NCBI RefSeq assembly: GCF_002087085.1
Contig: NZ_MWQY01000003.1
Span: 186,001 to 250,000 of the forward strand
DNA: 64,000 nt
Direction: 5' to 3'
Shown here: piece after piece, positions 10,014 through 63,123 of the stretch
Layout: every line of letters begins with the position of its first letter
Numbering within the stretch: position 1 is the first letter of the stretch
Notes under the pieces: generated by a model
What the model was told of the DNA's origin: nothing
The model's database searches: none
Seen by the model: the letters and a program-made list of their open reading frames with translations, nothing else
Translations under genes and position numbers: made by a program

Positions 10014-10016
10014 GTG

Positions 10017-35259: not shown

Positions 35260-35269
35260 GGAGGCGGAG

Positions 35270-37118: not shown

Positions 37119-37171
37119 GACTCCATTCTCTCACAAGATTTTTTCTCCGGTAAAGTTGGGGCATTTCACTT

Positions 37172-37300: not shown

Positions 37301-37310
37301 CTGTACCTCA

Positions 37311-38951: not shown

Positions 38952-39805
38952 GATTTCTCCCCGCGATACTGATCCCCAAGGAAATCACTACCTTGCTGAA
39001 GAACAATTTCCATAAGCATCGAGAGGCGTTGCGCTATTGGACCCCGTAGAATTGTACCCGCCTCGAACCTCGAGCGCATACCTGCAACAGTAAAATTAGC
39101 AGATCCGAGATATGCCGAACGTCCGTAATCGGAGACAGCAGCTTTGAAGTGGAAAGTTGAGATACCGAACCGATCTGCTGTGTCAGGCGTGTTCCAAGTA
39201 AGAACCCTACACCCGGGGTAGTGTGCCAGTTGCTCAAGTCTCGCGAGAAGGGTTTTGCTCGAGCTAGCGTTGAAACGACCCAAGATCGTTAGTTGAACAC
39301 CTGACTTCAGCCGACGCTCCACGACTTGAGATATGTCCGAGACTGTATCGCTATCCCAAAAGGGAGCAGCAAGGATTACTCTCTGCTGCGCGCTTGCAAT
39401 CACATCAACAACCGCCGTCCGAAGATCAAGTGCGGTTCGCCGAATATCTGCTTGTTTATCAAGGGATAGACTGGAGGGAAAAGTCACACAGAGCTCAACT
39501 TTTGACTTTGAAGCCCTTTCCATTCCAAGGGCTGCTGCGACCCCTCGTCGGAACTCAGCAGTTGACTTCAGAATGGCATGGTCTATTTCAAAATTGTCAC
39601 CAGACGTGCGGTTTACAACTCCCAAGTCTTCCAGTCCGATCAGAGCAAGTTTAATCTCATCGTACGACGCGGAGCGTTCAGATAATTCAGCCTCGATTTC
39701 ATGAATTCCAACAGACTTGGTTTGATTGGAATAAGCTAACGATTTCTCAACAAGTTCAAGGAGCCGCCCGAGGCGACGCGCCGCTTCAAGATACCGGGTA
39801 CTCAA
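38948..39805 (-). CDS. drmC: Phospholipase D-family nuclease, DrmC-like
   Basis: Single HKD motif HFKAAVSD plus GSANFT; follows DUF1998 gene. Confidence 0.8.
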   Translation of the reverse strand: MSTRYLEAARRLGRLLELVEKSLAYSNQTKSVGIHEIEAELSERSASYDEIKLALIGLEDLGVVNRTSGDNFEIDHAILKSTAEFRRGVAAALGMERASKSKVELCVTFPSSLSLDKQADIRRTALDLRTAVVDVIASAQQRVILAAPFWDSDTVSDISQVVERRLKSGVQLTILGRFNASSSKTLLARLEQLAHYPGCRVLTWNTPDTADRFGISTFHFKAAVSDYGRSAYLGSANFTVAGMRSRFEAGTILRGPIAQRLSMLMEIVLQQGSDFLGDQYRGEKS

Positions 39806-41826
39806 TACTCAACTCCATCCAACTGCCAGAATCCTACAATCTGCTCGAAATTGCTAACATCTGCCCATGGAGCATGTCCACCAATCAAGAAAGTCCTCGA
39901 CAAGCCGTGATTAAATGTACGACACGATATCTCCGGAGACTGAATACAACCGTGACATGCACCTCGTCCATCAATGCAGGTTGAATCATACACGCAATAT
40001 AGTGCTTCGTTAGCCAAAGCATCCAGAAACGCACTAAGTTGATCACGGACGAGTGTCTCAAAGCCACCGAGTTGAAAACTCCCTGAACTATCATAAATCA
40101 CAGTTCCTAGGAGCGGGAGAAACAAATACTCGGACAAGGATGTACGTTCGAGACCAGAATACCAGCTGGCAGCGCGCATCGCTGCATGTGAGAGAGTATG
40201 GACCAATCCAAAGACCATTCTACGCACTCGACAACTCCAGATGTCGTCGTAGTAGCGATCAATAGGCTCAAGATGGCTAAGGATCCACGACAATGGAGAT
40301 TTCTCGTTTTGAGGTACAGCGATCCCATTTGTCCGGAGCCAAGCCGCTACTCTTGCTGGATCGAGGGAGAGAAAGATTCCCTCGTGATCGCCCTCACGAG
40401 CGAGGATTGGAACTGTTCCGACGAGTTCCGGTCGCCCAAGCCGTTGAGCGGCAGCATACTTATCAAGCGAAGGAAATGCACGGATTTCAGTCGGAAGATC
40501 CTGTGCCGATAGCTCCTCGAAAGTCGGCAAAAAGGAACGACGCGTGTAGCCGAAGGTTGCAGTAATAACTGGTAGATCCTCAACTAACATGAGGTCCTTT
40601 ATTCCAAGCTGAGAGCGCGTATTTGCAATCTCGTCGGCAAGCAACGCTGTTGCACTGTCTTCCGAATCTATGACACTCATAGCATCTATAGTTGTTACAG
40701 TGGACCGAAAGGCGAGACTTTCCCGTATAGACGACTGAACATCTATCTCAAGGTGGATGCCTTCAGTTTCATCGTTTTTTTCCTCTTCGAGAGAAGGAGA
40801 TACTACAGCTGTTGCTGCTACAGCAATACGAGACATCAGTTCGGCAGCTCGCTGCGAATCTCCTGTCTGCCGTGCCGCTTGAGCGGCTTTCGTCAATTCT
40901 TGGATCACATCGATGGGATTCACCGGCCGCAAAGGCCGCTCACCGACAGGTAGCAGCGACCAGAGTGTCCTCTGCTCATCATCTGGTATACCAGTTACAG
41001 ATGGTCTGTCCAGACGCAGAATTGTTAGGGACTGCGGATAATAGGTTGCATTCGCACTGTATCGAGTCATACGCATCGCTGTCCTAGTCACGAAAGTACT
41101 GTCAGTATCTCCGCGGTCTACGGATCCGATAGCTCTCTCCTTCACAATGTCCTTAGCACACCGCGGGCAAGTTGCTGTGAACCGGTCCACAACAGTATGG
41201 CCGCACTTTTTGCATATGACCTTCATGTCTTTTACCCGTTCGGACATCGCTGACAACTCTAGATGACCACCTTCTTTGCAGTTGGGGCACCGCAGTCTCC
41301 GCTTCGAAGGCACCAGCAATCCATCTTTCGTCTTACGCGTAGTAGGCAAGTATTCGGAAACAGCGACAATCTCGCCACAACCATGTACGAAAACTTGTCC
41401 AAATTGTCTTACGGTCCGACTGTGGCACGCTGGACAGAATAGGGATGCTGCGGGTAAACCTCGCGGAAAGAAAAGAGTGCCGCAAGAACTGCAAAGAAAT
41501 GCTGTCTCAAAGACCCTTGCCTCCACAGACTCTGGCAGACCAATAGTGAAACGTTGCGCTTCACGTAACGGATCCGGGAAGTTCCGGTCGATACGACCAC
41601 CACGCGACTCCCAACGCTTGAGCTGCTCATTGACCTCTGCCAGTAAAACTTCCGCCCTTGAGGGCTCCCAAACACTCGACAGCCGAACGTTACCCAATTT
41701 TACGACTGCGACACCGTCTTCCCAGTCAACAGTACGTCCAGGAAGATAGTTAAACAATAACTGCGATACTCCTCGCGTCATTGAAAGGGCGGCGATGTCT
41801 GAATTGCTATAGCTATTACTGTCCAC
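39802..41826 (-). CDS. drmB: DUF1998 helicase-associated protein, DrmB-like
   Basis: N-terminal CxxC clusters, HTLSHAAMR, LSEYLF, GGF, C-terminal C..D..C..ACHGC....SC signature. Confidence 0.82.
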   Translation of the reverse strand: MDSNSYSNSDIAALSMTRGVSQLLFNYLPGRTVDWEDGVAVVKLGNVRLSSVWEPSRAEVLLAEVNEQLKRWESRGGRIDRNFPDPLREAQRFTIGLPESVEARVFETAFLCSSCGTLFFPRGLPAASLFCPACHSRTVRQFGQVFVHGCGEIVAVSEYLPTTRKTKDGLLVPSKRRLRCPNCKEGGHLELSAMSERVKDMKVICKKCGHTVVDRFTATCPRCAKDIVKERAIGSVDRGDTDSTFVTRTAMRMTRYSANATYYPQSLTILRLDRPSVTGIPDDEQRTLWSLLPVGERPLRPVNPIDVIQELTKAAQAARQTGDSQRAAELMSRIAVAATAVVSPSLEEEKNDETEGIHLEIDVQSSIRESLAFRSTVTTIDAMSVIDSEDSATALLADEIANTRSQLGIKDLMLVEDLPVITATFGYTRRSFLPTFEELSAQDLPTEIRAFPSLDKYAAAQRLGRPELVGTVPILAREGDHEGIFLSLDPARVAAWLRTNGIAVPQNEKSPLSWILSHLEPIDRYYDDIWSCRVRRMVFGLVHTLSHAAMRAASWYSGLERTSLSEYLFLPLLGTVIYDSSGSFQLGGFETLVRDQLSAFLDALANEALYCVYDSTCIDGRGACHGCIQSPEISCRTFNHGLSRTFLIGGHAPWADVSNFEQIVGFWQLDGVEY

Positions 41827-44800
41827 GCGACAACCTCTGAATCAATTTCTTATCTGCGGAATCCCAGATTATGATGAACCCAGGATCATCCGAATCTCGC
41901 AAGCTACGCATTGACGATAGATGCGAATTCAAGTTTACGGATCTCCTACCATGTACACGTTCTTGGTTCACTATACTGCTGTAGTGATTCTGAACTACCA
42001 CCTCAAGCTGTTCGCGATAGCGTCTGCTTGGAGCCAGATCCGTTCCATACGCGCTATTCATCCATGCGATGATTTCCGATACTTCGAGAGCCTCTGCATT
42101 CTCGCTCCCTTGCAAGTCCTGCACGTCCGCGACCGATACAATACGCCGGCGTATATGTCTCGGAGCTATGGCCATCAAATATCCTGCGAGAATACCGGCA
42201 GATGTTCTTCGTAAGGCAGGTTCGGGCCAACGAATGATTGCAGACGGATCCACAAGACGGTCAAGATACTCATGGAATTTACAAAAGCGATCAAATACGC
42301 TTCTATCTCTCTCACTTTGTGGAGTAGCAACGAACAGTGATATCCCAGGCACCGTTCGTCCTACTCTCGCAGATGCTTGGATGTACTCAGCGACGAGTCT
42401 CGGAAAACCGGCAAAGACAATGATGTTGAACCGGTCGACGTCAACTCCATGACCAATCACGTTTGTAGTTACGATACCGCGCGTCCGCTTCGCGGGGTCT
42501 CCAAGTGGATCAGCGGTTCTAATCGCGTGAACAATGCGACTCATCTCCGATTCAGAAATTCCCCCATTAAAGGTAGTAACGAGGAGATCACCGTGCTCGG
42601 GAGCCAGACGCTGAAGCTCTCGCTTCACTCGTGACTCTATAGCCTCAGCGACTTGATCAGAACCTTTACGCGTGAGAACATATGATAAAACTAACTCATA
42701 GTAAAAAACCAGCAACTTGTAATCATCTTTCGAGAGATCGCCCAAACCATAGCGATCCGCCATGGCCGCGGTATCGGTGTCAGCCAGATGCCGCGCTAAC
42801 TGTAGTTCTTCATAGAGTAGAGAGAGCGTGCGAGTTACAGCAGGTGTGTGCTTTCGTCCCACACCAAGAACTCCCACGAAAACTCTCCCGAGTTTTGCTC
42901 GGTTTTGTGCATAGTAAAAGGACTCATAGGCACTAGGCCCCGGGCCAGGAAACTGTCGAGACTGTCGCAAGTAAAGATGCCAAGCATGTGTCTTGTAACG
43001 TTCGATTGTCGCTGTTGCAGCAACGATTTTCCACGGTCTGCTGCCGAGAGTGTAAGCCAAGTTCATTACAGCCGTTTCGTAGTGCGAGTCAAATGTGCCC
43101 AACTCCTCACTAAGCAGGTGCATTTCGTCCTGAATCAGAAGGCTGGGGGCTGGATCTTTAAAAGGTCCATAGTGTATCCGGTTCGTCGCAGTACCACACG
43201 ACTCCGGAGTCTCCCCTGCCGCGTAGGCTACTGCTGCACTGCAGATTCGGTTAGAATCAAGAAAACTTGTTCCGTGAGTAGGGCAAACCAAGTCAAATCG
43301 ACCAAATAATTCGGCAAATCGCTGGTTTTGCCCAAACTGAGCGAGTTTGTCGACGGTCGAGACGATAACCGTTGGCACAAACCGATAAACGTCTTGGTCT
43401 ACAACGTAAATTGGAAGACGATTCTGTCCCCCGGGACATGAGTCACTCGTGCAACGGTGCTCCACAATGCGGTTAGAAGCATCGTATGACAGAACAGTAT
43501 CGCACCCACAGAATGGACAAGCGAATACACGCCGAAGCTTATCGTCTGGTCCGTTTGTGACAAACCGACGATGCGCGTCATCATCGATACGATTTGGTGT
43601 CGTCCCACTGCCAACAAAGTATCCCATTGAGAAACGAGCGCCACCGAGCCTCTCACGGTGCCGTATAAGCTCTGCAGACCCCAGTGCGGAGCCTAGGCGT
43701 TGCAGTTGTTGAAAAGTTAGAAGACGCAATGGGAATCTCACAAAGGCGGTAACACCAATTCGTTTACCCCTTAGTCGATCAAAGAAAGCTTGCCAGATCA
43801 GAAGACCGAGAAATGCCTCCGTCTTTCCGCCCCCAGCTGCAAACCAAAGGATATCCACGTCATCGTCATGTTCTTCGCGAATTTCCTCGTATTCTCGCGA
43901 AGCAAGTCCAGGAATCTGTGACACGATAAACACAATTTGAAACAAGCGCCACCTATCATAACGTCCGTCAGCAGCAGCTTCCATCGCCTCGTTCATCAAC
44001 ACGAAGGCCCGCAACACATGATCGAAACTGTCGTCCGCAAGTAGTTTAATGCCTCTGGAAAACCGCTGAATTTCGTCGCGAAATCTCTTCCGTGCTTCTG
44101 AAGCGTCGGTGAGCTCTTTTCCCATGAGACCAGAAAGAGTGTCTCTCCATTCGATTCTATCGTACGATTTCATCGCGGTGAGGATCGACTGAAGAGTATG
44201 AATGGGATCACTGCGCATTGAATCGAATGTTGGAGCGCCGTCTGGGATTTCGCGCGGTTCGAGTCTGTAGACATATTCGATCGGCGTGGCATCTGTTGAG
44301 AGTATAACATTCCCGTTCTGAGCATCGTGCCTCACGTGACAGTTGATGCCAATCCCCGCCATTCGTCGGTCGTATCTGAAGCTCTTCGGTAGTTCTCGGA
44401 ACACCGAGAACCGATGCGCACTTGCAGGCAACACAACACTTAACCGAACACGGTAGAGATTTGGGTCAAGGAAATCACCTTCGCCGCGACCAGGTACCTC
44501 AGTTCGGTTGATCACTCTAAGAACCACTCGCACACATTCTGGTTCCGTCGGAATCGGTACAATCCGTACATCAAGTACCGGGCTCCAAAAATTGCGTAGG
44601 GACGCCATTCCCAAGGAGCTGAGCCAACTGCGGTATTTCTCATTAGATTTCACATTCTCTTGCGACACTTGAAACTGTGTTACTCCAGGGTAGAGATCCC
44701 TAGGCGAGATGGAGTCGAGATACCTACGAAAACTTTGGGAAAGATCCATAGTTATCTTCTTTCGCTGGCAGAGATCCCGTATGTTGATTTCGGGTGCTAT

Positions 44801-45319
44801 AAGTCCTGTCACATCTTCCCGTGTCCATACCGGCACAATCTCAGAAGTTTTTATCCCAGTATCGTTACTACCTACACTTTCGTCGACCGATTTGGAAGAA
44901 GAATACTCACGCCGCCAAGCTCCCAGGCCCGATTGTTCCTCTAAAGTCGGCAATCTACGCACATAAATACTAGCACTGAAATCAATGACCATTGCACCGG
45001 CCATTTCGCAGGCCTCATGTGGCATCTTCCATTGAAGCCCAAGAGAAGACTGCTCATAGGCCGAATCCTGCGGGAGGTCTTCTGCCAAACTATCAAGGTC
45101 GTTTCCGGCAGAGATAGGACCAAGTATGGAACTTTTTGGGGACGGCTCGGGCTGATTAGCCATTCGTGATGCAGGAGTCAAGAAACCACAAAGCACGGTG
45201 TCTCTTGGGAACTGACCTACCAACCGCGAGGCAGTTTGATCGGAACCTTGTGCGCGTTCGGCGAATCGTCTTGCTAGATTAATTGAAAATGCATTATATT
45301 CATCGTCAGATATCGACAT
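41816..45319 (-). CDS. drmA: SF2 helicase, DrmA-like
   Basis: WRLFQ, GGGKTEAF, FPLRLLT.QQ, TVDK, QDEMH, ATAT, GVDV, EYIQASARVGR motifs. Confidence 0.85.
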   Translation of the reverse strand: MSISDDEYNAFSINLARRFAERAQGSDQTASRLVGQFPRDTVLCGFLTPASRMANQPEPSPKSSILGPISAGNDLDSLAEDLPQDSAYEQSSLGLQWKMPHEACEMAGAMVIDFSASIYVRRLPTLEEQSGLGAWRREYSSSKSVDESVGSNDTGIKTSEIVPVWTREDVTGLIAPEINIRDLCQRKKITMDLSQSFRRYLDSISPRDLYPGVTQFQVSQENVKSNEKYRSWLSSLGMASLRNFWSPVLDVRIVPIPTEPECVRVVLRVINRTEVPGRGEGDFLDPNLYRVRLSVVLPASAHRFSVFRELPKSFRYDRRMAGIGINCHVRHDAQNGNVILSTDATPIEYVYRLEPREIPDGAPTFDSMRSDPIHTLQSILTAMKSYDRIEWRDTLSGLMGKELTDASEARKRFRDEIQRFSRGIKLLADDSFDHVLRAFVLMNEAMEAAADGRYDRWRLFQIVFIVSQIPGLASREYEEIREEHDDDVDILWFAAGGGKTEAFLGLLIWQAFFDRLRGKRIGVTAFVRFPLRLLTFQQLQRLGSALGSAELIRHRERLGGARFSMGYFVGSGTTPNRIDDDAHRRFVTNGPDDKLRRVFACPFCGCDTVLSYDASNRIVEHRCTSDSCPGGQNRLPIYVVDQDVYRFVPTVIVSTVDKLAQFGQNQRFAELFGRFDLVCPTHGTSFLDSNRICSAAVAYAAGETPESCGTATNRIHYGPFKDPAPSLLIQDEMHLLSEELGTFDSHYETAVMNLAYTLGSRPWKIVAATATIERYKTHAWHLYLRQSRQFPGPGPSAYESFYYAQNRAKLGRVFVGVLGVGRKHTPAVTRTLSLLYEELQLARHLADTDTAAMADRYGLGDLSKDDYKLLVFYYELVLSYVLTRKGSDQVAEAIESRVKRELQRLAPEHGDLLVTTFNGGISESEMSRIVHAIRTADPLGDPAKRTRGIVTTNVIGHGVDVDRFNIIVFAGFPRLVAEYIQASARVGRTVPGISLFVATPQSERDRSVFDRFCKFHEYLDRLVDPSAIIRWPEPALRRTSAGILAGYLMAIAPRHIRRRIVSVADVQDLQGSENAEALEVSEIIAWMNSAYGTDLAPSRRYREQLEVVVQNHYSSIVNQERVHGRRSVNLNSHLSSMRSLRDSDDPGFIIIWDSADKKLIQRLSRGQ

Positions 45320-47582
45320 ATGCTTCCTCTTCGCACTTGATTATATCGTCTACCACCCGCATCTGAGCGGCTGACATCAGTTGGCTGACAGACATTCCCC
45401 ACTCCCGTTCTATTTGTGCGAGCGTCAGTGGTCCCAGTCGGCTAGAGTAAGATGCCCGAATTGCTCTTGCTAGATCTCGTCCTGCTTTTCTGTGAAGGAC
45501 CCGCCAGCGTTTGATCCGATCGAAATACCTCCGAAGATCAGGCTCATATAAACTCACACCAAGTGCCGCAGCAAAAGCTCTAAAACGCTCCCAACTTGCA
45601 GGAGTGCTCGCAGCATCAATGTCTTTGAAAGTAATCCACGACCTGATCGTTGAGTAAGTGACCGGGTGTCCTCTCTCTGCAAGTACACGGGTGATTTTCC
45701 TTAGACTGGGACGGTTTTCAGAATACACCGACTTAACGATAAGCAACCACTCCTCACGAGCAGCGGCAAATTCCTTTAATACACCCGCATCAAGCATCGC
45801 TATTCGACGTTCAGAGAATAGTTCGTGTGAATCATCGTCCAACATGACGATTTTATCTCCAATTTGCAGATTCTCAGCGAACGTGACTGTAGTGTGGCCA
45901 CCCGCAGCACCAAGGACTTCGAACCGCGTATGCTGCCCTGTTGTCATTATAGTTCCATCTTCGAAGACTAATGTAACCTCGCCAGCATTTGCTCGGAAAT
46001 CATTGTCAATCTCATTGGACTCAGTCTTGATTGTCGTCCCTGCGACGTCCATGCCTATAGGCAATTCCGCTGTGTCGGCGAAAGGAGGAACATAAGGCTC
46101 CAAGGCCGCCATTAAACTTTCCAGTGGTTCCGCAGCTGCTGATTGGCCCACGCTTTTCAGTAGTTCGATCATACTGTTCGCACCATACCATGCAGCTCTG
46201 ACTTCCAATGGATCCATAACAAGTTGAGCATTTTTCACTCGATGCGAGAGTATTGCGTCAAGGGTAGCCATTCCGCTGTATCCAATGACTATTGCCCTCT
46301 CATAGCTCCGATGCAAACCACGTTGTCCCACCCACCTTGTCGTCACGCCGAGTTCGTGAAGTCCTTTTGTATCGATACCTAGGACACTCGCTACAGAATG
46401 CTCTACAGACAAAGCCGTTCGTTGGTCCCGCACCAAAACCAGCAACTGCCCATTGCCTTCCTCGTGGATGATGGAAGCAACGGCTGCGTCAAGTCTTTCT
46501 TGCTGGATAGCGACATCTGCCGCTGTGGCAGTGAGTAGTTCGGTGCAGTATGTCAGCATGCTGGCTTCTTCAGGACGAGCATTCTGCAATCGCTCTAACG
46601 CAGCGAAGTAACGCGCCAACTCACGATTCTCATAATTATCAACTGCCTGACGCAATGACCACCAAGCCGCCCGTGCAAGTCGAACAAGCCGATCGAGTTC
46701 GCCCGACATGTCGCTCAAGCCTTCCAATGCAAGATCTAAACTGCGCTGAGCCGAAAGTCGGGTTCCACCGACAGAGACAACTCCGCCTCCAATAAATACC
46801 GGTGGCGGAAGGACAGGTAAAAAGGTCTCAGCTACGTTTTCGATATCCATAGGCAAACCCAAGAGATCACTAGGACTCGCAGCAACGATGACAGTGGGAG
46901 CCGAATCTTCTCGTATCCCAAGAATCGAACTAACAATTTTTCTTCCGCGAATACCTCGATAGAATTGAATATCGGCCAAAACAACATCCGCCTCCGCCAG
47001 AGTTCGTAGTCCGAACTCTCCGGGACGTCGATTCGCAGGTACCTGAATGTGTGGTCTGTATTCGGAATGAGAAGTGTATCTCCCGAGCACAGGGCGTGAA
47101 CCTTTTACAACTCTACCAGTCGGATGTACGCGATCAATACCCATGAAACATTTTGACCCCAATAGCCTCTCTGAAAGATCGCATTTATGTCGTTGGAATG
47201 CATCCTCCCAGTCAGGCTGGACGAAGTCACGTTCTTGTTCACGTTGCTCCATGTGCCTGGTCCGACGTGCTTCGAGCCGCCTTGCGCTTGATTCGGACAC
47301 CGAATACGCCAATGAATCATCAAGATTAAGGACTGGAACTACGCTCCAGGAAGCATTTAACGAAAGCCATGGAACCGCGTCTGGCCAACGGACGTGAAGA
47401 TACAGTGGAAGCTCGGATACATGGGGGATATGCGTCCACGAAGTGAAAAGAACAATTCCACCTGCTCCGCTTGCATGGCGCAGAGCCGCGACCATCGGGC
47501 GCAAATCCTTGTCAATAACTGCTAAACGACATTCCTCGGTGCTGGAGAAGAATGCAGAAAAGTTTTGATTCGATGGCATCAA
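45306..47582 (-). CDS. DrmE-like protein
   Basis: 758 aa at the head of the operon; C-terminal LQIGDKIV..W..TIRSWI pattern recalled from DrmE; assignment rests mostly on position and size. Confidence 0.6.
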   Translation of the reverse strand: MMPSNQNFSAFFSSTEECRLAVIDKDLRPMVAALRHASGAGGIVLFTSWTHIPHVSELPLYLHVRWPDAVPWLSLNASWSVVPVLNLDDSLAYSVSESSARRLEARRTRHMEQREQERDFVQPDWEDAFQRHKCDLSERLLGSKCFMGIDRVHPTGRVVKGSRPVLGRYTSHSEYRPHIQVPANRRPGEFGLRTLAEADVVLADIQFYRGIRGRKIVSSILGIREDSAPTVIVAASPSDLLGLPMDIENVAETFLPVLPPPVFIGGGVVSVGGTRLSAQRSLDLALEGLSDMSGELDRLVRLARAAWWSLRQAVDNYENRELARYFAALERLQNARPEEASMLTYCTELLTATAADVAIQQERLDAAVASIIHEEGNGQLLVLVRDQRTALSVEHSVASVLGIDTKGLHELGVTTRWVGQRGLHRSYERAIVIGYSGMATLDAILSHRVKNAQLVMDPLEVRAAWYGANSMIELLKSVGQSAAAEPLESLMAALEPYVPPFADTAELPIGMDVAGTTIKTESNEIDNDFRANAGEVTLVFEDGTIMTTGQHTRFEVLGAAGGHTTVTFAENLQIGDKIVMLDDDSHELFSERRIAMLDAGVLKEFAAAREEWLLIVKSVYSENRPSLRKITRVLAERGHPVTYSTIRSWITFKDIDAASTPASWERFRAFAAALGVSLYEPDLRRYFDRIKRWRVLHRKAGRDLARAIRASYSSRLGPLTLAQIEREWGMSVSQLMSAAQMRVVDDIIKCEEEAYVDI

Positions 47583-48135
47583 TGAGCATTACCTCTTCAG
47601 AAATCGAAAGATGCAACGCAGATGATACTTACCTGAGTGGTGAGACATGACTTTTGTCACGATGCAAGAGTGTACTGGCACTTGGAATCCGCTGGTCCGC
47701 AGCTTTTGAATTGTACATGCAATTGCCGTGCCTCAACAGCCAAGATGTAGATCTGGTTCATACTAACAATACAGTCAGTATAACGTGAATCACGAGCGTT
47801 CTGAGCCGTTGCCCTCACACTTTGAACTGTCAGCTTTACCGACTCCGAACCAGGACTTTAGCCCACGATTCCTTGTAGCTGCTGTTCCATTGTAAGTAGA
47901 TGGGGCAATGGTTCGTTCATACTTACAGATACTCCTTTGGGCAACTACACGAATTAACCATTAAGCCTTGTCACGATGGCGATTCAAACGCTCCTAGACT
48001 GAACCTACCTTACACAAATGACGTTACGCTATTAAACGATATTTCCATCTATTTTACCGGTTAGCATGTGTTCTTGCAACTGCAAAATCATGATAAGGTA
48101 AGTATGCTGTTAGTAGGGGCGGTTCATAAGAGATG

Positions 48136-48366
48136 TTATCGGTGATCCAAACATATATGGCACGCACAAGCTCCCACTGGTTTTGCGAAATTACCCAGGT
48201 TCTCTGACAAGGACCAGATGCTCTCTGCTGCCTCCACCGGCAAGGTACGGACAGCAGCGTCTATACGACTGAAGTCGATGTCGGATCGTTCAACTGGAAG
48301 TTGATCGTGATATATTCCACGAAAGCGGGCGTGCTTCCGTCTGGCCTTCAACCTTTGAGTGTTCAT
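48136..48366 (-). CDS. Hypothetical protein (76 aa, C-terminal CACHIC)
   Basis: GGGGA RBS before ATG 48366 (MNTQRLKARR...). Confidence 0.45.
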   Translation of the reverse strand: MNTQRLKARRKHARFRGIYHDQLPVERSDIDFSRIDAAVRTLPVEAAESIWSLSENLGNFAKPVGACACHICLDHR

Positions 48367-48651
48367 CGTTAGTTCCCCAGACTGTTGATTGTGGTTTTGC
48401 CGTGCACTCCTGGGATTGCTGATCGTTCGATTATTCCTTGCTCGTGTGTAGAAAGAGACCATCGATATATGCAGATATGCAGGCGAATATTTTTTGGGGT
48501 TCAATCGTGGTGCAGCCTGTAAGCAATTAAAGAACCATCAGCACAAAACCTTTTTTCATATGCCAGCAGTATCTTATGGTTTGCGCCGATGTGCAACTTT
48601 TTTCCTTTCTTGACCAAGCCGACGAGTAATTCCAATTGTCTACATTTTCCC

Positions 48652-48677
48652 CGTGTAGCCAATTGTGTAGCCACTAT
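48652..48677 (+). repeat. Putative integrase arm-type site (right)
   Basis: CGTGTAGCCAATTGTGTAGCCACTAT, matches 32391-32416. Confidence 0.7.
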
Positions 48678-48718
48678 TTTCTCTATTATCTAAAAGTTAT
48701 GATCACTCATGATCACTC

Positions 48719-48746
48719 TTGACATGTTAATTTTTTGTTATATAAT
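48719..48746 (+). promoter_or_regulatory. Consensus sigma70 promoter facing attR (Pcirc-like)
   Basis: TTGACA-N16-TATAAT preceded by tandem ATGATCACTC x2. Confidence 0.65.
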
Positions 48747-48796
48747 GATTTATGTAAGTCGTGAGCGATGGTAAATATCTCTAATATCTCACGTCG

Positions 48797-48844
48797 TCAG
48801 CCTTCCAAGCTGATGACGTCGGTTCGATTCCGATCAGGCGCTGA
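48797..48844 (+). repeat. attR core (duplicated tRNA-Gly 3' portion)
   Basis: Exact copy of 32277-32324; lacks the tRNA 5' half. Confidence 0.95.
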
Positions 48845-48926
48845 GAGTGAGCGGAATGGCAAAGCTTGCTTTGTCATTCCCGAACCGAAGTGACTGAAAC
48901 TGTAAAGTATCAGTCGATGGCGAAGA

Positions 48927-48953
48927 GTCCCCGCTTTGCGGGGGCATTTTTTT
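48927..48953 (+). terminator. Intrinsic terminator downstream of attR
   Basis: GTCCCCGC-TTT-GCGGGGGC followed by ATTTTTTT. Confidence 0.75.
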
Positions 48954-49156
48954 GCCCTGAAGCTTTAGCGGCTTTTCCATATCCTGCCCTGCAAAATCAG
49001 AAAACCTTTATTAGCTTATCCTTTGTCGTGGATGTCGTGGTGAAAATAATAACTCCGGAAGAGGCTCAAACCACTACAGGCACGACAGGATCACGACATA
49101 TTTATTGCGATTCTTCCTCTGTCGTGGTCTCCGTGGATGTCGAGGTTAAGGTTGTA

Positions 49157-49537
49157 TTACGCCAGAAATTGGTAGACCGACATCATGGTTGCGAGGATGA
49201 CAAACCCTGTGGTCATGAACTTGAACATCATGTCAAAACGCTTGTCCACGGATGTAAAACGCTCATCCATCGATTTCTGTACGGCACCAAAACGCTCGTC
49301 CATTGAACGCTGTATAGCTTCAAAACGCTCATCCATGCGTTTAAAGCCTTCCTCGATGCGGGTATCGATGCGGATTATGGCTTCACGAAACTCCGAATGT
49401 TCCCGTTCGTTCCGGTCCTGACGTACCAGGTTCTCAGTCAGCAGGGTTATATAACGGTGCAGGGAGCGTTTGTTCTTTACTTCCACCGCTTCTTCGAGTT
49501 CCTGTTCCAGAATGTCCGCCAAGGATTCCATGGTCAT
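49157..49537 (-). CDS. Bdr/DUF1640-like coiled-coil repeat protein with C-terminal TM anchor
   Basis: 11-aa repeats (MDERFEAIQRS, MDERFGAVQKS, MDERFTSVDKR) and hydrophobic C-terminus; start 49537 or 49531. Confidence 0.65.
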   Translation of the reverse strand: MTMESLADILEQELEEAVEVKNKRSLHRYITLLTENLVRQDRNEREHSEFREAIIRIDTRIEEGFKRMDERFEAIQRSMDERFGAVQKSMDERFTSVDKRFDMMFKFMTTGFVILATMMSVYQFLA

Positions 49538-49607
49538 CTCATGTAATATACTCTGATCAGTACCATTAATACAGCGGAACATAAGCTGTTGCTTCAGGAG
49601 AGACTCG

Positions 49608-50382
49608 ACCACAATGGGCACTACAGGAGCGCGCCATGGTTACAGATTCCTCTCTTCGTCGTGGGTGTCGTGGATTTCGTGGTTAAAATTCTTATTTTCG
49701 AAGATGTTCAAACCACTACAGTCACGACAGGACCACGACATTTTTATGGTTCTTATTCTTTCTGTCGTGGTTTAATCTTCTTCTAATACACTCCTTCAAG
49801 GTCTTCTCATTCTGCCAGCCGTCTTGCCGCCATCAAGGGCCTCGGCAAGCAGGCCGTCCGGCCCGCCCTTGACTGCGGCTGTGACGGTCCGGGGGTGTAA
49901 CAAGGTAAAACCTTGAAGGAGGCTTTGCCATGGTGTATCCGGAATTGTCAAAACTCATCCTGGATTCCGCTTTTGCTGTTCACAGATCCCTCGGTCCTGG
50001 GCTGCTGGAGCTGCCCTACCACAACGCTTTGTATTACGAGCTTGCCGGTAATAATCTGCAGGTTGGCTACAACGCTCCGTTTAATGTTTGCTACCGTGGG
50101 CATACGGTAGGAGAGTATTTTGCAGACCTCATGGTAAACGGTACTGTCATTCTGGAGGTCAAGGCGGTCTCCGCCCTGGGCGTGGAACATACGGCCCAGC
50201 TGCTAAATTATCTGCATATTTCCGGCTGCAGGCTGGGCTTTCTGCTCAATTTCGCGCCTCAACGGCTGGAACTCAAGCGGCTGGTTTTGTAGGCCGGAAA
50301 GGGTAACCACGACGGGTACTACGGGAGCACGATATTGCTGAAGAACTTTATCCTTGGTAGTGGGTTCCATGAAGGTCGTGGT
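49608..50382 (+). repeat. Copy A of a ~775-bp diverged direct duplication
   Basis: Aligns by eye to 51176-51951 (two REP units, leader, GxxExxY gene, REP unit). Confidence 0.88.
49930..50292 (+). CDS. GxxExxY protein (PD-(D/E)xK nuclease-like), copy 1
   Basis: GLLELPY motif, ADL..ILEVK, AQLLNYL, LLNF; AAGGAGG RBS. Confidence 0.92.
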   Translation: MVYPELSKLILDSAFAVHRSLGPGLLELPYHNALYYELAGNNLQVGYNAPFNVCYRGHTVGEYFADLMVNGTVILEVKAVSALGVEHTAQLLNYLHISGCRLGFLLNFAPQRLELKRLVL

Positions 50383-50422
50383 AATGCTTGATAGAGCTGT
50401 TGAATAGCTTTATATTATGCAC

Positions 50423-50439
50423 TGACAGCATTGCTATCA
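50423..50439. promoter_or_regulatory. Putative antitoxin operator
   Basis: Inverted repeat TGACAGCA-T-TGCTATCA just upstream of the antitoxin RBS. Confidence 0.55.
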
Positions 50440-50454
50440 ATGGAGGGTTTTACC

Positions 50455-50709
50455 GTGGCTTCTTTAACGATTCGAAACCTGGATAAAGAGATAAAATCCC
50501 GGCTGCGGGTACTGGCTGCCAGACATGACAGGTCCATGGAGGAGGAAGCGCGGTGTATTCTTGGAGAAGTCCTTACCAGAGAAGAGAACGAGAAAGAAAA
50601 CTCCGGGCTTGGGTCCCGTATTCACCGGAGATTTTCTGATACTGGGGGCATAGAACTCAGCATTCCGGAACGGCGAGAACCTGCACGAGCAGCGGAAATT
50701 ATTGAATGA
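50455..50709 (+). CDS. FitA-like ribbon-helix-helix antitoxin
   Basis: ASLTIRNLD..LRVLAARHDRSMEEEAR; GTG start after GGAGG. Confidence 0.9.
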   Translation: MASLTIRNLDKEIKSRLRVLAARHDRSMEEEARCILGEVLTREENEKENSGLGSRIHRRFSDTGGIELSIPERREPARAAEIIE

Positions 50710-51128
50710 TAGTTCTGGATACCAATGTGCTATCCGAACTTATGCGGCCGACCCCGAACCCAGTCGTTATTACATGGCTTGATACCCTTCCTGTCAGGGA
50801 CGTTGCTTTAAGCTCGATTACTGTTTCGGAGATACTTTTCGGTATAGGTTTGTTACCGTCTGGAAAAAGAAAGGATCAACTCATTTCCGCAGCAAAGACA
50901 CTCTTTGAAACTGATTTTCAGGACCGCATATTTCCTTTCGATGCCGATGCAGCTGTTGAATACGCGGCGATCGTACTTCATCGTCAAAAGTCCGGCCGCC
51001 CCATATCCATGGCTGATGGCCAGATTGCAGCAATATGCAGGGCACGGAAATGCTCGCTTGCGACCCGGAATATAAAGGATTTTGAAGGTACGGGAATAGT
51101 ATTGATCGATCCTTGGGCCGAGGGGTAA
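50706..51128 (+). CDS. vapC: PIN-domain toxin (FitB/VapC)
   Basis: MIVLDTNVLSEL, ADGQIAA, LATRNIKDF, DPW; ATGA overlap with antitoxin. Confidence 0.92.
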   Translation: MIVLDTNVLSELMRPTPNPVVITWLDTLPVRDVALSSITVSEILFGIGLLPSGKRKDQLISAAKTLFETDFQDRIFPFDADAAVEYAAIVLHRQKSGRPISMADGQIAAICRARKCSLATRNIKDFEGTGIVLIDPWAEG

Positions 51129-51175
51129 CAAGTTTTTCCCCATAAGACCGCGGATAACTCTTTTTACAAGGTAGA

Positions 51176-51951
51176 ACCACGACAGGCACTGCAGGAGCAC
51201 CACGGAGCCAGGGTCCCCCGTTTCCTGTGTGGTGCTTTTCGTGAATGTCGTGGTTAAAATCCTTATTTTCGAAAATGCTCAAACCACTACAGACACAACA
51301 GGACCACGACATTTTTTATGGTTCTGATTCCCTCTGTCGTGGTTTAATCTTCCTTTAATTCACTCCTTCAAGGTTTTTTCATTCTACCAGCCGTCTTGCC
51401 GCCGTCAAGGGCCACGGCAAGCGGGCCTTCCGGCCCGCCCTTGACTGCGGCTGCAACGGTCCGGGGACAAACAGGTAAAACCTTGAAGGAGGCTTTGCCA
51501 TGTTGTATCCGGAATTGTCAAAACTCATCCTGGATTCCGCTTTTGCTGTTCACAGGTCGCTTGGTCCGGGGCTGCTGGAGCTGCCCTACCACAATGCTTT
51601 GTATTATGAACTTGCCGGTAATAATCTGCAGGTTGGCTATAACGCTCCGTTTAATGTTTACTACCGTGGTTATACGGTAGGGGAGTATTTTGCAGACCTC
51701 CTGGTAAACGGTACTGTCATTCTGGAGGTCAAAGCGGTCTCCGCACTGGGCACTGAACCTTCAGCCCAGCTGTTAAACTACCTGCATATTTCAGGCTGCA
51801 GGCTGGGTTTTCTGCTCAATTTTGCCCCTCAAAGGCTTGAGTTTAAGCGGCTGGTTTTGTAGGCCGGAAAGGGTAACTACGACGGACACTACGGGAGCAC
51901 GATATTTCTGAAGACTTTATCCTTGGTAGTGGTTTCCGTGAAAGTCGTGGT
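51176..51951 (+). repeat. Copy B of the ~775-bp duplication
   Basis: Aligns to 49608-50382. Confidence 0.88.
51500..51862 (+). CDS. GxxExxY protein, copy 2
   Basis: 112/120 aa identical to copy 1 (manual count). Confidence 0.92.
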   Translation: MLYPELSKLILDSAFAVHRSLGPGLLELPYHNALYYELAGNNLQVGYNAPFNVYYRGYTVGEYFADLLVNGTVILEVKAVSALGTEPSAQLLNYLHISGCRLGFLLNFAPQRLEFKRLVL

Positions 51952-52274
51952 CTGAAAATTAAGTCAGAAGAGGTTTAAACCACTACATTCACGACAGGAG
52001 CACGACAGATTTATGGTTCCCGTTTCCTTTGTAGTGCTGGTAGTGGATATTGTGGTTCCTGTTTCACCGCGCTATTCCCACTAATAATCAAGAATATGCC
52101 ATCCCGCAGCGATGTTTTTATCCTTCTTCTTTTCATCTGAGAGATAGACCTTAATGTTGATGTCAGGTTTTTTTATTGACGCACGGCGATAGAGAACATA
52201 CAGTTTTACCAGACGTGATCTGCCTTCCGGCTTGCTGCGTCCGGAAAAAATAGCCACAGGAGGAATCCTGCGTT

Positions 52275-59817: not shown

Positions 59818-62800
59818 TCACTCCTCAAACCCGAAATCGTCGAACTTCAGCACATTACAGTTCTCTGCGATAACCCGGCGTTTTTCGTCGCTTAACCCAT
59901 CCGGAACATGGACATCTATGTCGAGGTTTATTTTTACTTCAGATCCAACAATACTCGTGAGGTGCTGCAGCACTTCTTCCGAGATTTTTCCAATTTCCCG
60001 GGAGATATGCAGGGGGTCGATTTTTTTATGGGCATAAAAACGCCGCTGCGGATTATCCACAGTGATGTGCTCAGCTGGTCTGGCTGTTGTATCGTGATTA
60101 TTTGCAGCTTCACCGCTGCCATGGGGAGTTGTACCCGGTTCCGGGTATGCTGAAGGAGCATTATTCTTAGGTTCAGATTCGGCTGCCTTCAACTGCTGTA
60201 CTGCTGCTGCGGCCTGAACAACAATCCCTCTCTCCGTATTTATTGAAACCACCCTGCCTGCCTTCAAGCCCTGATAGCGCTGAGCGTTATCATCGTAGCT
60301 GTCGGCATAGGCAAAACCGTCGCGTTCCCATTCGGGCAAGGCTATTCCGTCGATTACTGCGTTTTCAAGGACCTTTACGCTGGTAACTCTAGGAAGGTAG
60401 GGATAGGTAAAAAAATACTGAATCAGGTCCTTAACAGGAACATGAGAGCCTTTCCAGAGAGGGATTCGATCAAGGTCGATTTTCAGGTTCGATCCGCCCA
60501 TTTCAGCTTGCAGGATTCCTTCGGTACGCAGTTTTTTCGACAGACGTACTGCAAGGGCTTCACTGCCCTGCAAACGGTACTCCGTCAGTTCTATACTTTT
60601 CTTTGGATCCTCCTGGTACGGGACAAGGGCCCAGCAGAAGGTTTCCGGAATTTGCAGCTGTACTGTGCCTGCACATGAATCACGCTGTTCCTCCGCCTGC
60701 CGTATCTGATCAGGGGTCAAATTCAGCGAAACCCTGTCATCAAGAATGCTCTGCCAGGCAAGGTATATTCGCACCGCCTTGTTAAGATCGACATTGCGGC
60801 TTTGATCCGCAGCCAGAAATACCAACGCGTTTCGGTAAATACGGGGTGCGTTGCCCCGGGAATTGAGGATCTCTTCAGCCTTTTCACGAGCGGAAGAGGC
60901 CGCATCTCCTTTCAGGTGGGTGTTGTCGGTACTCAGCACGACCAGTCGGGTCGACATTTCATCGAAGATATCGGCTCCGCCCTGGGGAAATACGTGTACC
61001 TTCTGAAAACCACCGGTATCAGAAGCAGCAAGCTCAATCCGCCGCTGGATCTCTTTCCACACATCATGGGAATCGATCTGCCCCGCCCTTCCCTGGGCTA
61101 TTTTTCGAACTGTGGGCTGGGTGGAATACCAGTAGCGGCGGTTATCAACATAGAGGTAGGTTGCGTTATCCGCCAGCCTGCGCAGGGCATCTCCAAAGGT
61201 GGAGACGGCCTCACCGGGCTGGACGCAGCCGAGTTTTATTTCCTGTTCATCAATGCCCCGTTGAGCTGCGTGCTGGATCGGGGCGGATCCAAGGTAGATG
61301 GTCCGGGCCACCCTACGTACAGCGGAGTATCTTCCCAGATTGGTATTCTCTGAATCAATTTTTCTGGGCAGGGACTGGTCTCCATCCACATCATGGTCAA
61401 TAACCGGTTTCCAGTTGTCCTCCAGATAACGGGTCAGCTCACTCTTTACGTCAGGATCATCTATGGGGATGGTGGAGGGCATTATCAGCAGACTGCGGTC
61501 ATCCTTTTCCCAGAGAGAATAGATTACCGTCGCCATAAGGCGCAGCACACCCCGGGTCCTTTGGAAGCGATCGAGGGTGGACCAGGTGTTATAGAGCTTG
61601 TCGAACAGGTCTGGATGAACGGGATATGCCCGCTTGATGCGTTCCCTGTAGTCGACCTCCTTACACTCCGGGGGAAAATCCTGACTCTGGTCAAGATACA
61701 TGTCGGAAAAGGCCCTGGCAACGGCATCGAGGGCTTTATGGTCCAGCACGCGGCGAAAGAGCCTGCGGCGTACAATCTCAAAGCCTTCCTCCGCGGTCGC
61801 AGGACTCCAGGGGGTATGCACGCGACCGATGGCATTCTTCAGCCGGTCAAGGGCGGCCTGCCCGCCTTTCCCCCCGATTTCGTTATCCGAGGCCGGCACA
61901 CTGACTACAAGAAAGGTATTTTTCGCGTTCTTGGCAGACTCGCTCAAGGTCTGGGCAAAGGTAAACTGGGTATCGAAGGTCCCCGACGGCAGAGTGTCTA
62001 CATCGTAGAACTGCCGGGCATAGGCAACCCACTCATCCACCAGGATCAGGCAGGGTGAATAGGCATCGAAGAGCTCCTTTAGGGCATCCCCGGGATTAGT
62101 CGAAGTGGCATCGGATTCGGCTATCATGGCATAGGCATCCCTGCCGCCAAGCTGCCAGGCGATCTCTCCCCAGAGGGTATTCACCACGGTTCCATCAGCT
62201 TTTTTGTCGGGTTTGCCGGGAGGGATTTTATTCCCGACGATTACTGCCCGGTTTACTTTTTTAGGGACTTCTATCCCCAGCTCCTTGACCAGGGAGTCAG
62301 CCCCGGCCAGTTCCGAGGCAGCGATGCCGGAAAAGAGATGATAGAGGGCCAGCATGGAGTGGGTCTTACCACCGCCGAAGTTGGTCTGCAGTTCCACCAC
62401 TGGGTCTCCACCGTTCCCGGAAATACGCTTCAGTCCGGTTTTAAGCAGTTCATTGAGACCTTCAGTAATGAAGGTCCTGCGAAAAAATTCCCTGGGGTCC
62501 AGGTATTCTCCCGAGCCCCTGCCAAGATACACCTCCCAGAGGTCGGCGGCAAACTCGGCCTGGTTGTAGTTGCCCGAGGCAACATCCTTATGGGGCTCGA
62601 TTACCTCCCGCCAGGGTTTAAGACCGGAAGCCGTTTCTGTTTTTACCTTAACGGTAACCTTCTTCCGTGCTTCCTTGCGGGCCTGCTCGTTAAACCGGAT
62701 CCGTAGAAGATCCTGTTTTTCCGTATTTATCGCCCCTGATGCCGGAGAAGCAATGGATTCCAGGAGCAGGCCGATGCTGTCGAGGGCCCGATAGGCTTCG

Positions 62801-63123
62801 TCCGTGGAAAAAGGCTGCTGATGGGCCCACTGATTGCGGGCATCCTTGATCTGGAAAACCAGGCTGCGATCGCTGCGCCCCAGAACATCGGAGAAGACCT
62901 CGTTCCAGCGGACCTGCATAATCGTCAGAAGCACCTGGATATCCCAGCTGGCAGGGTCTTCGCTTATGGAACCGCCGTACTGGTTTGAGCTGAATATGGC
63001 GGCAATATCCTGAAAATAATTTTTTCCCAGCTTTGTCCGCACCTGGCGGAACACAAAGGGTGTAAGTTCCCTGTTCAGTGTATCCAGGGCTTTTCCTACC
63101 CGTTCTGCATTACTCAACGCCAT
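59818..63123 (-). CDS. Swt1-like HEPN + DUF499 AAA+ ATPase
   Basis: N-terminal RNQWAH (Rx4H), PWREVIEPH.DV, EFAADL, TNFGGGKTH, LVDEW, YPVHP, FQRTRGVLR. Confidence 0.85.
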   Translation of the reverse strand: MALSNAERVGKALDTLNRELTPFVFRQVRTKLGKNYFQDIAAIFSSNQYGGSISEDPASWDIQVLLTIMQVRWNEVFSDVLGRSDRSLVFQIKDARNQWAHQQPFSTDEAYRALDSIGLLLESIASPASGAINTEKQDLLRIRFNEQARKEARKKVTVKVKTETASGLKPWREVIEPHKDVASGNYNQAEFAADLWEVYLGRGSGEYLDPREFFRRTFITEGLNELLKTGLKRISGNGGDPVVELQTNFGGGKTHSMLALYHLFSGIAASELAGADSLVKELGIEVPKKVNRAVIVGNKIPPGKPDKKADGTVVNTLWGEIAWQLGGRDAYAMIAESDATSTNPGDALKELFDAYSPCLILVDEWVAYARQFYDVDTLPSGTFDTQFTFAQTLSESAKNAKNTFLVVSVPASDNEIGGKGGQAALDRLKNAIGRVHTPWSPATAEEGFEIVRRRLFRRVLDHKALDAVARAFSDMYLDQSQDFPPECKEVDYRERIKRAYPVHPDLFDKLYNTWSTLDRFQRTRGVLRLMATVIYSLWEKDDRSLLIMPSTIPIDDPDVKSELTRYLEDNWKPVIDHDVDGDQSLPRKIDSENTNLGRYSAVRRVARTIYLGSAPIQHAAQRGIDEQEIKLGCVQPGEAVSTFGDALRRLADNATYLYVDNRRYWYSTQPTVRKIAQGRAGQIDSHDVWKEIQRRIELAASDTGGFQKVHVFPQGGADIFDEMSTRLVVLSTDNTHLKGDAASSAREKAEEILNSRGNAPRIYRNALVFLAADQSRNVDLNKAVRIYLAWQSILDDRVSLNLTPDQIRQAEEQRDSCAGTVQLQIPETFCWALVPYQEDPKKSIELTEYRLQGSEALAVRLSKKLRTEGILQAEMGGSNLKIDLDRIPLWKGSHVPVKDLIQYFFTYPYLPRVTSVKVLENAVIDGIALPEWERDGFAYADSYDDNAQRYQGLKAGRVVSINTERGIVVQAAAAVQQLKAAESEPKNNAPSAYPEPGTTPHGSGEAANNHDTTARPAEHITVDNPQRRFYAHKKIDPLHISREIGKISEEVLQHLTSIVGSEVKINLDIDVHVPDGLSDEKRRVIAENCNVLKFDDFGFEE

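Follow-up and report, generated by a model that had tools for sequence, protein, structure and literature searches.

The intervening sequence (IVS) of Leptospira has terminal inverted repeats, the pdif modules of Acinetobacter plasmids carry XerC/XerD binding sites around a 6-nt spacer, and the ends of Tn7 and Mu hold several subterminal binding repeats, TnsA being a PD-(D/E)xK protein of mobile DNA. Repetitive extragenic palindromic (REP) elements are 20-40-bp palindromes with a GTAG or CGTC tetranucleotide at one end, as given in PMC3733652, and the attC sites of integrons consist, according to PMC3607928, of R''/L''...L'/R' boxes, the R boxes carrying AAC and GTT at their inner ends. The large GxxExxY family (PF13366/TIGR04256) appears in the family listing of PMC3424549 for bacteria, archaea, and viruses with its function given as unknown; PDDEXK_2 is entered there as a 'putative transposase'. 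Here we describe an array of repeat arms and small genes, two of which encode GxxExxY proteins, at 49024-52057 of a 64-kb stretch of DNA from a marine spirochaete (contig NZ_MWQY01000003.1, positions 186,001 to 250,000). The whole stretch is called the window, and its numbering is used throughout.

Lying downstream of a tRNA gene, the locus is one of the repeat-armed cassette arrays that accompany many GxxExxY genes, and is neither a REP element or bacterial interspersed mosaic element (BIME) nor an integron. On balance, we lean slightly toward the view that the cassettes form a selfish family, whose own nuclease may be GxxExxY.

Architecture of the array

The array contains 15 repeat arms and two further arms cut to one unit, eight being long (F) and nine short (R). 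A full arm consists of three CACNAC hexamers about one helical turn apart. The long arm is 28-29 nt with a hexamer pitch of 9+11 and the form ACCACNAC-NGN-CACNAC-AGGAN-CACGACA, and the short arm is 26 nt with a pitch of 9+9, its reverse complement reading ACCACGAC-ATN-CACGAA-AAN-CACGACA. The F arms, all on the plus strand, start at 49070, 49608, 49712, 50306, 51176, 51283, 51876, and 51979. From the left, the order is R0-27-F1-22-R1, membrane-protein gene (minus strand), F2-22-R2-27-F3-22-R3half, leader and GxxExxY-1, F4-22-R4, followed by fitAB, F5-22-R5-27-F6-22-R6half, leader and GxxExxY-2, and F7-22-R7-27-F8-22-R8. Genes in the window always replace the 27-nt R-to-F interval. In the list below, R0 was found by a profile hidden Markov model (HMM), all units by a pattern and a repeat search, and units 1, 2, 4, 5, 7, and 8 by the profile HMM as well.

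49024-49042, plus strand: R0, lone short arm with two hexamers
49070-49147, plus strand: unit 1, F1 49070-49098, 21-nt gap, R1 49120-49147
49157-49540, minus strand: cargo 1, 127-aa coiled-coil protein with MDERF repeats and a C-terminal membrane helix; no family above threshold
49608-49684, plus strand: unit 2, F2 49608-49636, R2 49656-49684
49712-49772, plus strand: unit 3, F3 49712-49740, one-unit right arm 49763-49772
49788-49929, plus strand: leader 1, long GC-rich hairpin pairing CTCCTTCAAGG with the Shine-Dalgarno stretch CCTTGAAGGAGG
49930-50292, plus strand: GxxExxY-1, 120-aa protein of PD-(D/E)xK nuclease fold (PF13366, E 4.4e-34)
50306-50383, plus strand: unit 4, F4 50306-50334, R4 50356-50383
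50431-51128, plus strand: cargo 2, fitAB toxin-antitoxin pair (Pfam, NCBIfam)
51176-51255, plus strand: unit 5, F5 51176-51204, R5 51226-51255
51283-51344, plus strand: unit 6, F6 51283-51311, one-unit right arm 51335-51344
51360-51499, plus strand: leader 2, second copy of the Shine-Dalgarno-sequestering hairpin, 90% identical to leader 1
51500-51862, plus strand: GxxExxY-2, 93% identical to GxxExxY-1 (PF13366, alignment)
51876-51951, plus strand: unit 7, F7 51876-51904, R7 51925-51951
51979-52057, plus strand: unit 8, right end of the array, F8 51979-52007, R8 52030-52057

A degenerate 29-nt pattern with up to three mismatches matches the window eight times, always on the plus strand, against a mean of 0.00 in 100 shuffles. 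The repeat search of the window returned the same eight F copies (family D4), the opposite arms (D3 and D7), and four 88-nt R-27-F units (D2). An earlier note on this DNA had counted eight inverted units and one 'half unit', here R0, and had seen the motif nowhere else in the window; all nine are real, and both the pattern and the profile searches bear out the absence elsewhere. Its measurements need some revision. All eight units are present, but in two of them the right arm is cut to one unit (49763-49772 and 51335-51344). The note gave each left arm three hexamers at a pitch of about 9-10 nt; each full arm does have three hexamers, but the arms are unequal. The F-to-R distance of about 22 nt is roughly right (22-25 nt between regex matches; 21-25 nt with direct reading included), but neighboring units lie 27-28 nt apart by the regex and not 26-27 nt.

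The asymmetry of F and R in length and pitch and the gap lengths are also kept in relatives. In one of them, L078, a full arm occupies the place of the cut-down arm at 49763-49772; the two cut-down right arms are therefore internal deletions between hexamers.

The pairing of the arms should be noted, since the repeats had been called hairpins. Folded as single-stranded DNA, three of the eight units beat all 200 shuffles (z-scores, in order, of -1.58, +1.70, -2.83, -0.62, -4.33, -4.35, -0.53, and -1.30). In an alignment of 14 F-gap-R units taken from five sources, 21 expected pairs were scored. Compensatory pairing was absent from these 14 units: 84.6% of the cells are paired versus 85.5% in shuffles, and 476 of 500 shuffles were at least as high. 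Hexamer position 4 is unpaired in 6, 11, and 6 of the 14 sequences and varies independently on both arms. What is conserved in the arms is the hexamers, their spacing, and the long/short asymmetry. Since the hexamers are conserved, the base pairing is not, and folding is mostly weak, the arms are most likely inverted arrays of protein-binding sites on duplex DNA rather than selected hairpins, and the former label is generous. Rfam gave no match to arms or leaders, either at the gathering threshold over the whole window or at E ≤ 5 over 48600-52200; its one relevant match, below threshold, was the tRNA fragment.

Turnover of the cassettes between strains and samples

The same arms bracket different cargo in genomes of the same genus and in related metagenome contigs. 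The cargo includes an FGGY kinase and a 2-hydroxyacid dehydrogenase gene in genome G004, an OmpA-family gene in G004 and L078, and a DUF6804 gene in genome G002, whose GxxExxY gene is split by a group II intron. The split in G002 (L033, ~9540-13840) falls after codon ~28; reverse transcriptase (RT), maturase, and HNH open reading frames (ORFs) and a second partial RT are found there.

Within the array, the two GxxExxY modules are 90-93% identical, and the repeat search shows a 1570-nt duplication. The stretch of similarity runs from the GTGGTT end of R2/R5 to the GTCGTGGT end of R4/R7, both being outer R ends. The contigs of four sequencing runs from other samples (shares 0.17-0.27; the parts they leave uncovered are uninformative) show further variants. 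In two runs (X3, at a depth of 112, and X4), 49603 is joined to 50304, so that exactly F2...GxxExxY-1 is missing. Other contigs join 49026 to 49132, with one 105-nt period fewer, and 52013 to 52053, with 39 nt of R8 missing. The earlier note had supposed that the repeats shuffle cargo; between strains the cargo between identical arms does differ, and one module is present or absent between samples.

Contig C30 of the same genome (G000) carries paralogues of the cargo 1 membrane protein adjoining arms. One of them starts exactly after the GTGGTT of an arm, at a place where G004 has no gene. The surrounding region (L037, 6860-10760, and C30:16661-17230) is a diverged second copy of the whole arrangement, 75-94% identical, with a tRNA-Gly 3' fragment, three tandem copies of the following stretch, a terminator, degenerate arms, and two more membrane-protein paralogues, and it is flanked by an amine oxidase as in G004. 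Either the genome has two such loci or the assembly includes DNA of a second strain.

Arms beside other GxxExxY genes

The genome holds 10 PF13366 matches. On contig C75, a second arm family comprises 13 arms with the unit AACCAC-AGAAT-ACAC-AGAAA-ACACGGAAA and a 13-nt gap, and it occurs nowhere else in the genome. This array ends at its own GxxExxY gene inside a type I restriction-modification (R-M) operon (hsdM, RhuM, KilA-N, hsdS, YhcG/DUF1016, GxxExxY, hsdR), and a copy of the hsdS 3' end precedes each unit. The family spans 3860-7620 of L080 (G000:C75:145000-157000), which also has a truncated copy of the start of the DUF1016 gene; a single arm lies in frame inside hsdS (~L080 4540-4590) and is translated as TTKDTKSTKG. 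On C36 and C40, inspection by eye shows the same leader and R-like motifs next to the GxxExxY paralogues; the repeat search of these two contigs found no local inverted repeats beside the genes.

In a sample of the class, 42 of 151 genomes have PF13366, with up to 17 copies and many fragments with stop codons. We counted periodic triples, defined as three identical 5-mers at 8-11-nt pitch, within 330/200 nt of 38 full-length GxxExxY genes. Their density is 1.08 per kb near the genes versus 0.14 elsewhere in the same loci (7.7-fold), and 16 of the 38 genes score as positive; the test is strict and overlooks obvious cases. Bracketing inverted arms, sought by an ungapped and insensitive test against a null of 300 cross-locus pairs (L106, with its short flanks, was left out), lie above the 95th percentile of the null at 9 of 37 genes. 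Seven loci on viral contigs encode relatives, and all five inspected have arms. The link between the repeats and GxxExxY genes that the earlier note had guessed at is thus found in the independent C75 array, the triple density, and the viral loci.

The unit sequence tracks the GxxExxY protein clade, which is the repeat/protein co-variation that the same note had in mind. Clade 1 (the window type; proteins 63-93% identical) has CACGAC or CGCGAC units, clade 2 (59-72% identical, with hosts in three families) C[AG]CGAAA-type units, clade 3 C[AG]CAGAG-type units, and clade 4 GGAT-type units. The units stay conserved as the proteins drop to 59-73% identity. The CACGAA triple is present in 14 of the 151 genomes, 11 of which have PF13366, versus 31 of the 137 others, though related genomes are not independent. 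The placement of the gene varies: it lies between units (R...F) in the window and inside a unit (F-gene-R) in several clade 2 and viral loci.

The scan of genome contigs for arms gave 13 stretches, with several arms on only one contig (L047/L048); the actinobacterial and other GC-rich single matches look like chance or coding repeats and were set aside. Palindromes of three or four CACGAC(G) units stand just after genes in GC-rich metagenome contigs or metagenome-assembled genomes (L063 569-657, L066 1392-1489, L067 1146-1230, and L044 8001-8105). On these short pieces, tblastn did not find GxxExxY.

The arms could in principle be functionless remnants of local tandem and segmental duplication, judging from the 1570-nt duplication, the 105-nt period gained or lost between samples, and the repeated hsdS 3' ends on C75. 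However, hexamers, asymmetry, and gaps are kept even between genomes in which the GxxExxY proteins share only 71-73% identity, and analogous arms with other units recur in other families and on viral contigs. We therefore regard such an origin as improbable.

The GxxExxY proteins and their leaders

Both genes match PF13366 far above its cut-off (117.8 and 114.1 bits versus 22), and TIGR04256 is matched with 124 bits versus a cut-off of 35. In the AlphaFold model of GxxExxY-1 (predicted local distance difference test score, pLDDT, 96.4), the nearest folds by Foldseek are Cas4 SSO0001 (E 7.5e-5), the lambda exonuclease family, and Hjc resolvases. A sequence search of the PDB found no relative. 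G24-x-x-E27-x-x-Y30, D66, E76, and K78 are invariant in 57 sequences. Since E27, Y30, D66, E76, and K78 are among these residues, both copies appear to have an intact PD-(D/E)xK active site.

Upstream of each gene is a GC-rich leader hairpin of 130-140 nt, in which CTCCTTCA... pairs with the Shine-Dalgarno stretch ...TGAAGGAGG. When 11 leaders are compared, taken from paralogues with as little as 38% protein identity, 14 of the 34 predicted pairs are kept through changes on both sides. The conserved leader is also found in L033, L071, L078, L114-L117, L081, and L082. It resembles a brake on translation, as would be fitting for a nuclease that is harmful in excess. With no Rfam family, it is a candidate new cis-regulatory RNA motif.

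Distribution in the genome and comparison with REP elements and integrons

We built a profile HMM from 28 arms and ran it over the whole genome at E ≤ 10. Of its 19 matches, 15 lie at 49024-52058, two on C30, and two weak ones (E 1.2 and 5.5) on C75. Fuzzy matching with up to seven mismatches gave nine matches in the genome, eight at this locus and one on C30, and none with a reversed control. The genome-wide count proposed earlier therefore confines the arms to one locus and a diverged copy on C30.

This distribution bears on the possibility that the units are REP/BIME elements moved by a REP-associated tyrosine transposase (RAYT), or miniature inverted-repeat transposable elements (MITEs) of an ordinary insertion sequence. 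The units are indeed intergenic inverted doublets, and neighbors alternate in orientation as in BIMEs. However, they are present at only one locus and on C30 in a 97.2% complete genome, where a search for a Y1/RAYT gene (PF01797) gave no match, though control genomes did match. The arms begin with ACCAC and end with CACGACA, with no GTAG or CGTC tag at the ends. Inverted arms are present, yet by eye no direct repeat flanks the R...F or F...R units, no target duplication was seen, and no transposase family or gene was found in or beside any array examined. REP/BIME elements were accordingly rejected, the description 'REP-like' is not borne out, and an origin of this kind is very improbable.

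The other mobile system to be weighed is the integron, because the genome has a genuine IntI on contig C34 (393.7 bits versus a cut-off of 265). The F-22-R units might be unusual attC sites in a cluster of attC sites lacking an integrase (CALIN), used in trans by this IntI. They are imperfect palindromes with AAC...GTT outer ends, their 2-nt difference in arm length is reminiscent of extrahelical bases, the module boundaries lie at the GTGGT(T) end of the R arm, and the cargo, a toxin-antitoxin (TA) pair and small ORFs, is typical of cassettes. However, the attC sites of the IntI array (ATAAC...GTTAT, ~167 nt, common to C75, C41, C46, and C58) are long, canonical, and unrelated to the arms, so that the genome's own integron was rejected as the source of the array and the attC likeness drawn by the earlier note finds no match. 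No integron integrase or attI was found near the array; the nearest tyrosine recombinase (32437-33597; TIGR02249, 16.5 bits) belongs to the tRNA island described below. The AAC/GTT register also differs from that of R''/R' boxes, as AAC/GTT are the outermost paired bases of the units and the flanking 4 nt pair poorly by eye. Pairing covariation is absent, the cargo lies in both orientations, and the same build recurs with GxxExxY inside an R-M operon and on viral contigs. Taken together, a non-canonical integron has little probability.

The region G000:C34:1-4061 is a canonical chromosomal integron, whose array is broken over several small contigs and whose repeats are also shared with C9. A second, degraded intI lies at C4:1958-2752.

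A possible mechanism and its main rival

In the mechanism that we favor, each boundary is a pair of inverted arms, which would be the cis sites, and genes fill the R-to-F interval, 27 nt long where no gene is present. Through recombination at the arms, the locus gains, loses, duplicates, and exchanges arms, loaded with cargo or not, and this yields a strain-variable cassette array just downstream of tRNA-Gly. A GxxExxY oligomer might bind the unit repeats and break the DNA at or near an arm. Repair from an arm-sharing copy would then copy the intervening DNA, and arms, nuclease genes, and passengers would spread and be reshuffled. The passengers would be fitAB and the membrane protein here, and OmpA-family, DUF6804, and sugar-kinase genes in relatives. 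The enzyme step itself, in which GxxExxY acts on the arms, is possible, although we hold the opposite to be the more probable.

The main rival gives the arms a role for the host or at the RNA level, either as stems for processing or insulation, like those of an ORF-bearing IVS in 23S rRNA, or as sites for a host DNA-binding protein. GxxExxY would then be a frequent passenger, for example a defense or addiction gene, and the array would have grown by duplication and homologous recombination. The arms flank fitAB, membrane-protein, OmpA-family, and kinase genes as well as GxxExxY, and those on C75 stand between co-oriented type I R-M genes and would be co-transcribed. The leader may tune GxxExxY expression at the RNA level, some loci place the gene within the loop (F-gene-R), like an IVS, and the observed variants all fit plain recombination between repeats. 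On the other hand, an RNA stem should show compensatory changes; none were found, and most units fold no better than shuffles. An IVS in 23S rRNA was rejected: there is no rRNA in the window, and PF05635, the family of S23p-type IVS proteins, has no match in G000. Conservation of the units within clades across host families, together with viral carriage, fits a gene-borne element better than a host-specific site. We therefore consider this rival unlikely; integron, REP/MITE, and functionless duplication fit worse still.

Several observations weigh against the favored mechanism. The arms flank unrelated cargo as readily as GxxExxY, and what has been observed is their anatomy, conservation, association with GxxExxY, and turnover, while binding, cutting, or copying of the arms by the protein and the repair route are what we infer. 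Homologous recombination of the ordinary sort, or slippage from one repeated arm to another, would suffice to produce every variant seen without a dedicated enzyme, and no target-site duplication was seen. Clear arms are lacking at about half of the sampled GxxExxY genes (22 of 38 in the triple test and 28 of 37 in the bracketing test). The agreement of clade and unit is expected from common descent of a gene with its flanks, related sequences not being independent. Three genomes (G062, G106, and G137) carry CACGAA triples with no PF13366 match, and the reversed control pattern matches seven genomes, so that single matches may be chance. A shared terminus is not general either, since ACCAC/GTGGT is only ~1.75-fold enriched near GxxExxY genes overall. 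ACCAC occurs within 60 nt after the stop in 5 of 42 GxxExxY genes, and a common AACCAC/GTGGTT terminus for all GxxExxY elements was dropped.

More broadly, and only tentatively, GxxExxY proteins could be the nucleases that mobilize a new class of miniature mobile DNA spanning several phyla, whose sites would be inverted arrays of clade-specific 6-9-nt units and which in this spirochaete genus would form an integrase-free platform capturing and reshuffling passengers (toxin-antitoxin, envelope, and sugar-metabolism genes) by tRNA-Gly. This generalization is rather unlikely as it stands; if it is true, the array would be a functional analogue of the integron, with a PD-(D/E)xK nuclease and homologous repair as its driving force.

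Arms of this kind beside GxxExxY genes are apparently undescribed: no published description was found in the full-text literature on GxxExxY/PF13366/TIGR04256, a body of text with subscription journals mostly outside it, and no article on GxxExxY, PDDEXK_3, PF13366, or TIGR04256 dealing with repeats was found in what is mostly open full text. The window contributes the locus-confined array with non-nuclease cargo, the presence or absence of a module between samples, the arm asymmetry without covariation, the clade-specific units, and the covarying leader. Arms that change with the protein clade offer a concrete candidate substrate for PF13366/TIGR04256, a family of unknown function. If the nuclease moves the arms, it would represent a new enzyme class for miniature mobile DNA and, besides integrons, a second route to strain-variable cassette arrays, and insertions within operons, type I R-M systems among them, would be accounted for as well. 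Even with GxxExxY as nothing but cargo, the arms still mark recombination hot spots that shape accessory gene content.

Cargo genes and genomic context

The product of cargo 1 had been labeled 'Bdr-like'. This label has no family support, since Pfam gives only a sub-threshold EMC3_TMCO1 match and NCBIfam none. In cargo 2, the FitA-like ribbon-helix-helix (RHH) antitoxin gene has its likely start at GTG 50455 and ends at 50709 (PF22513, E 5.8e-18), and the PIN/VapC-type toxin gene spans 50706-51128 (PF01850, E 3.6e-13), with NCBIfam VapC models scoring below their cut-off. The two genes overlap by 4 nt (50706-50709), which is the FitAB/VapBC type II arrangement of an RHH antitoxin gene overlapping a PIN toxin gene. 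A promoter-like site of their own lies at 50388-50416. The sequence TGCTATCA is present just upstream of fitA (window 50420-50440); we take it to be a half-site of the Neisseria FitAB operator.

To the left of the array lies a tRNA-associated island with the following ends.

32251-32322: intact tRNA-Gly(TCC), start of the island
48797-48844, plus strand: 48-nt copy of the 3' part of tRNA-Gly(TCC), identical from the anticodon loop to the 3' end, right direct repeat of the island

The array begins ~180 nt beyond the tRNA-Gly copy, with a terminator (48927-48945) in between. Because the 48-nt repeat bounds the island, the island was inserted here, and before that the array directly followed the tRNA and its terminator. 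tRNA-Gly is also close to the arms in L035 and L078, and the single arm detected in L036 is ~6.8 kb from tRNA-Gly.

The island (~16.5 kb, 32251-48844) contains a tyrosine integrase gene (32437-33597), an AAA_25/helix-turn-helix (HTH) protein gene, an IS3-type frameshift pseudoknot (ALIL, 36721-36837, minus strand), and a DISARM-like set of N6 methylase (37311-38951), PLD (38948-39805), helicase (41816-45319), and DrmE_C (45306-47582). A perfect TTGACA-16-TATAAT promoter-like site (48719-48746) at the right end of the island faces the tRNA fragment and the short piece that follows it as far as the terminator (48927-48945), and could drive a small RNA of ~190 nt with no Rfam match. Elsewhere in the window (59818-63123, minus strand), an 1101-aa protein with an N-terminal Swt1-like HEPN domain and DUF499 is probably another defense gene product.

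Comparison with known systems

The array resembles the REPIN-RAYT system, as outlined in PMC3116915 and PMC3733652, in combining a small enzyme gene with inverted repeat doublets; in both, gene-less doublets exist and population data show variants at the repeats. It differs in that there is no Y1/HUH gene, the linked protein having a PD-(D/E)xK fold instead, and in that the arms are found at one or two loci rather than dispersed in high copy. Moreover, each arm consists of three unit repeats rather than of a 20-40-bp GC palindrome, and the arms bracket cargo.

With integrons, as described in PMC3607928 and PMC4889954, the locus shares imperfect palindromic sites that punctuate small, strain-variable cassettes including a TA pair, two asymmetric arms, and module boundaries at a GTT-bearing end. 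In contrast to them, the attC sites of its own genome are unrelated, no integrase is near, the R/L box register is not that of attC, covariation is absent, and cargo occurs in both orientations.

The IVS with an S23p ORF resembles the array in its patchy distribution and in being regarded as selfish (PMC4990558). Both enclose a small ORF between inverted arms, and some GxxExxY loci have the gene in the loop between arms. However, the array is not in an rRNA gene, its ORF family is another one, its arms are made of unit repeats, and its genes lie between units.

The pdif modules are likewise gene modules, often TA pairs, bounded by oppositely oriented sites of ~28 nt. In the array, by contrast, no XerC/XerD organization with a 6-nt spacer was seen, no search having been aimed at such sites. 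Finally, Tn7 and Mu have several inverted protein-binding repeats at each end, and a PD-(D/E)xK nuclease can join in transposition. The array shares this build of repeated inverted sites with a nuclease-fold protein, but a DDE transposase, a target duplication, and defined termini are all absent from it.

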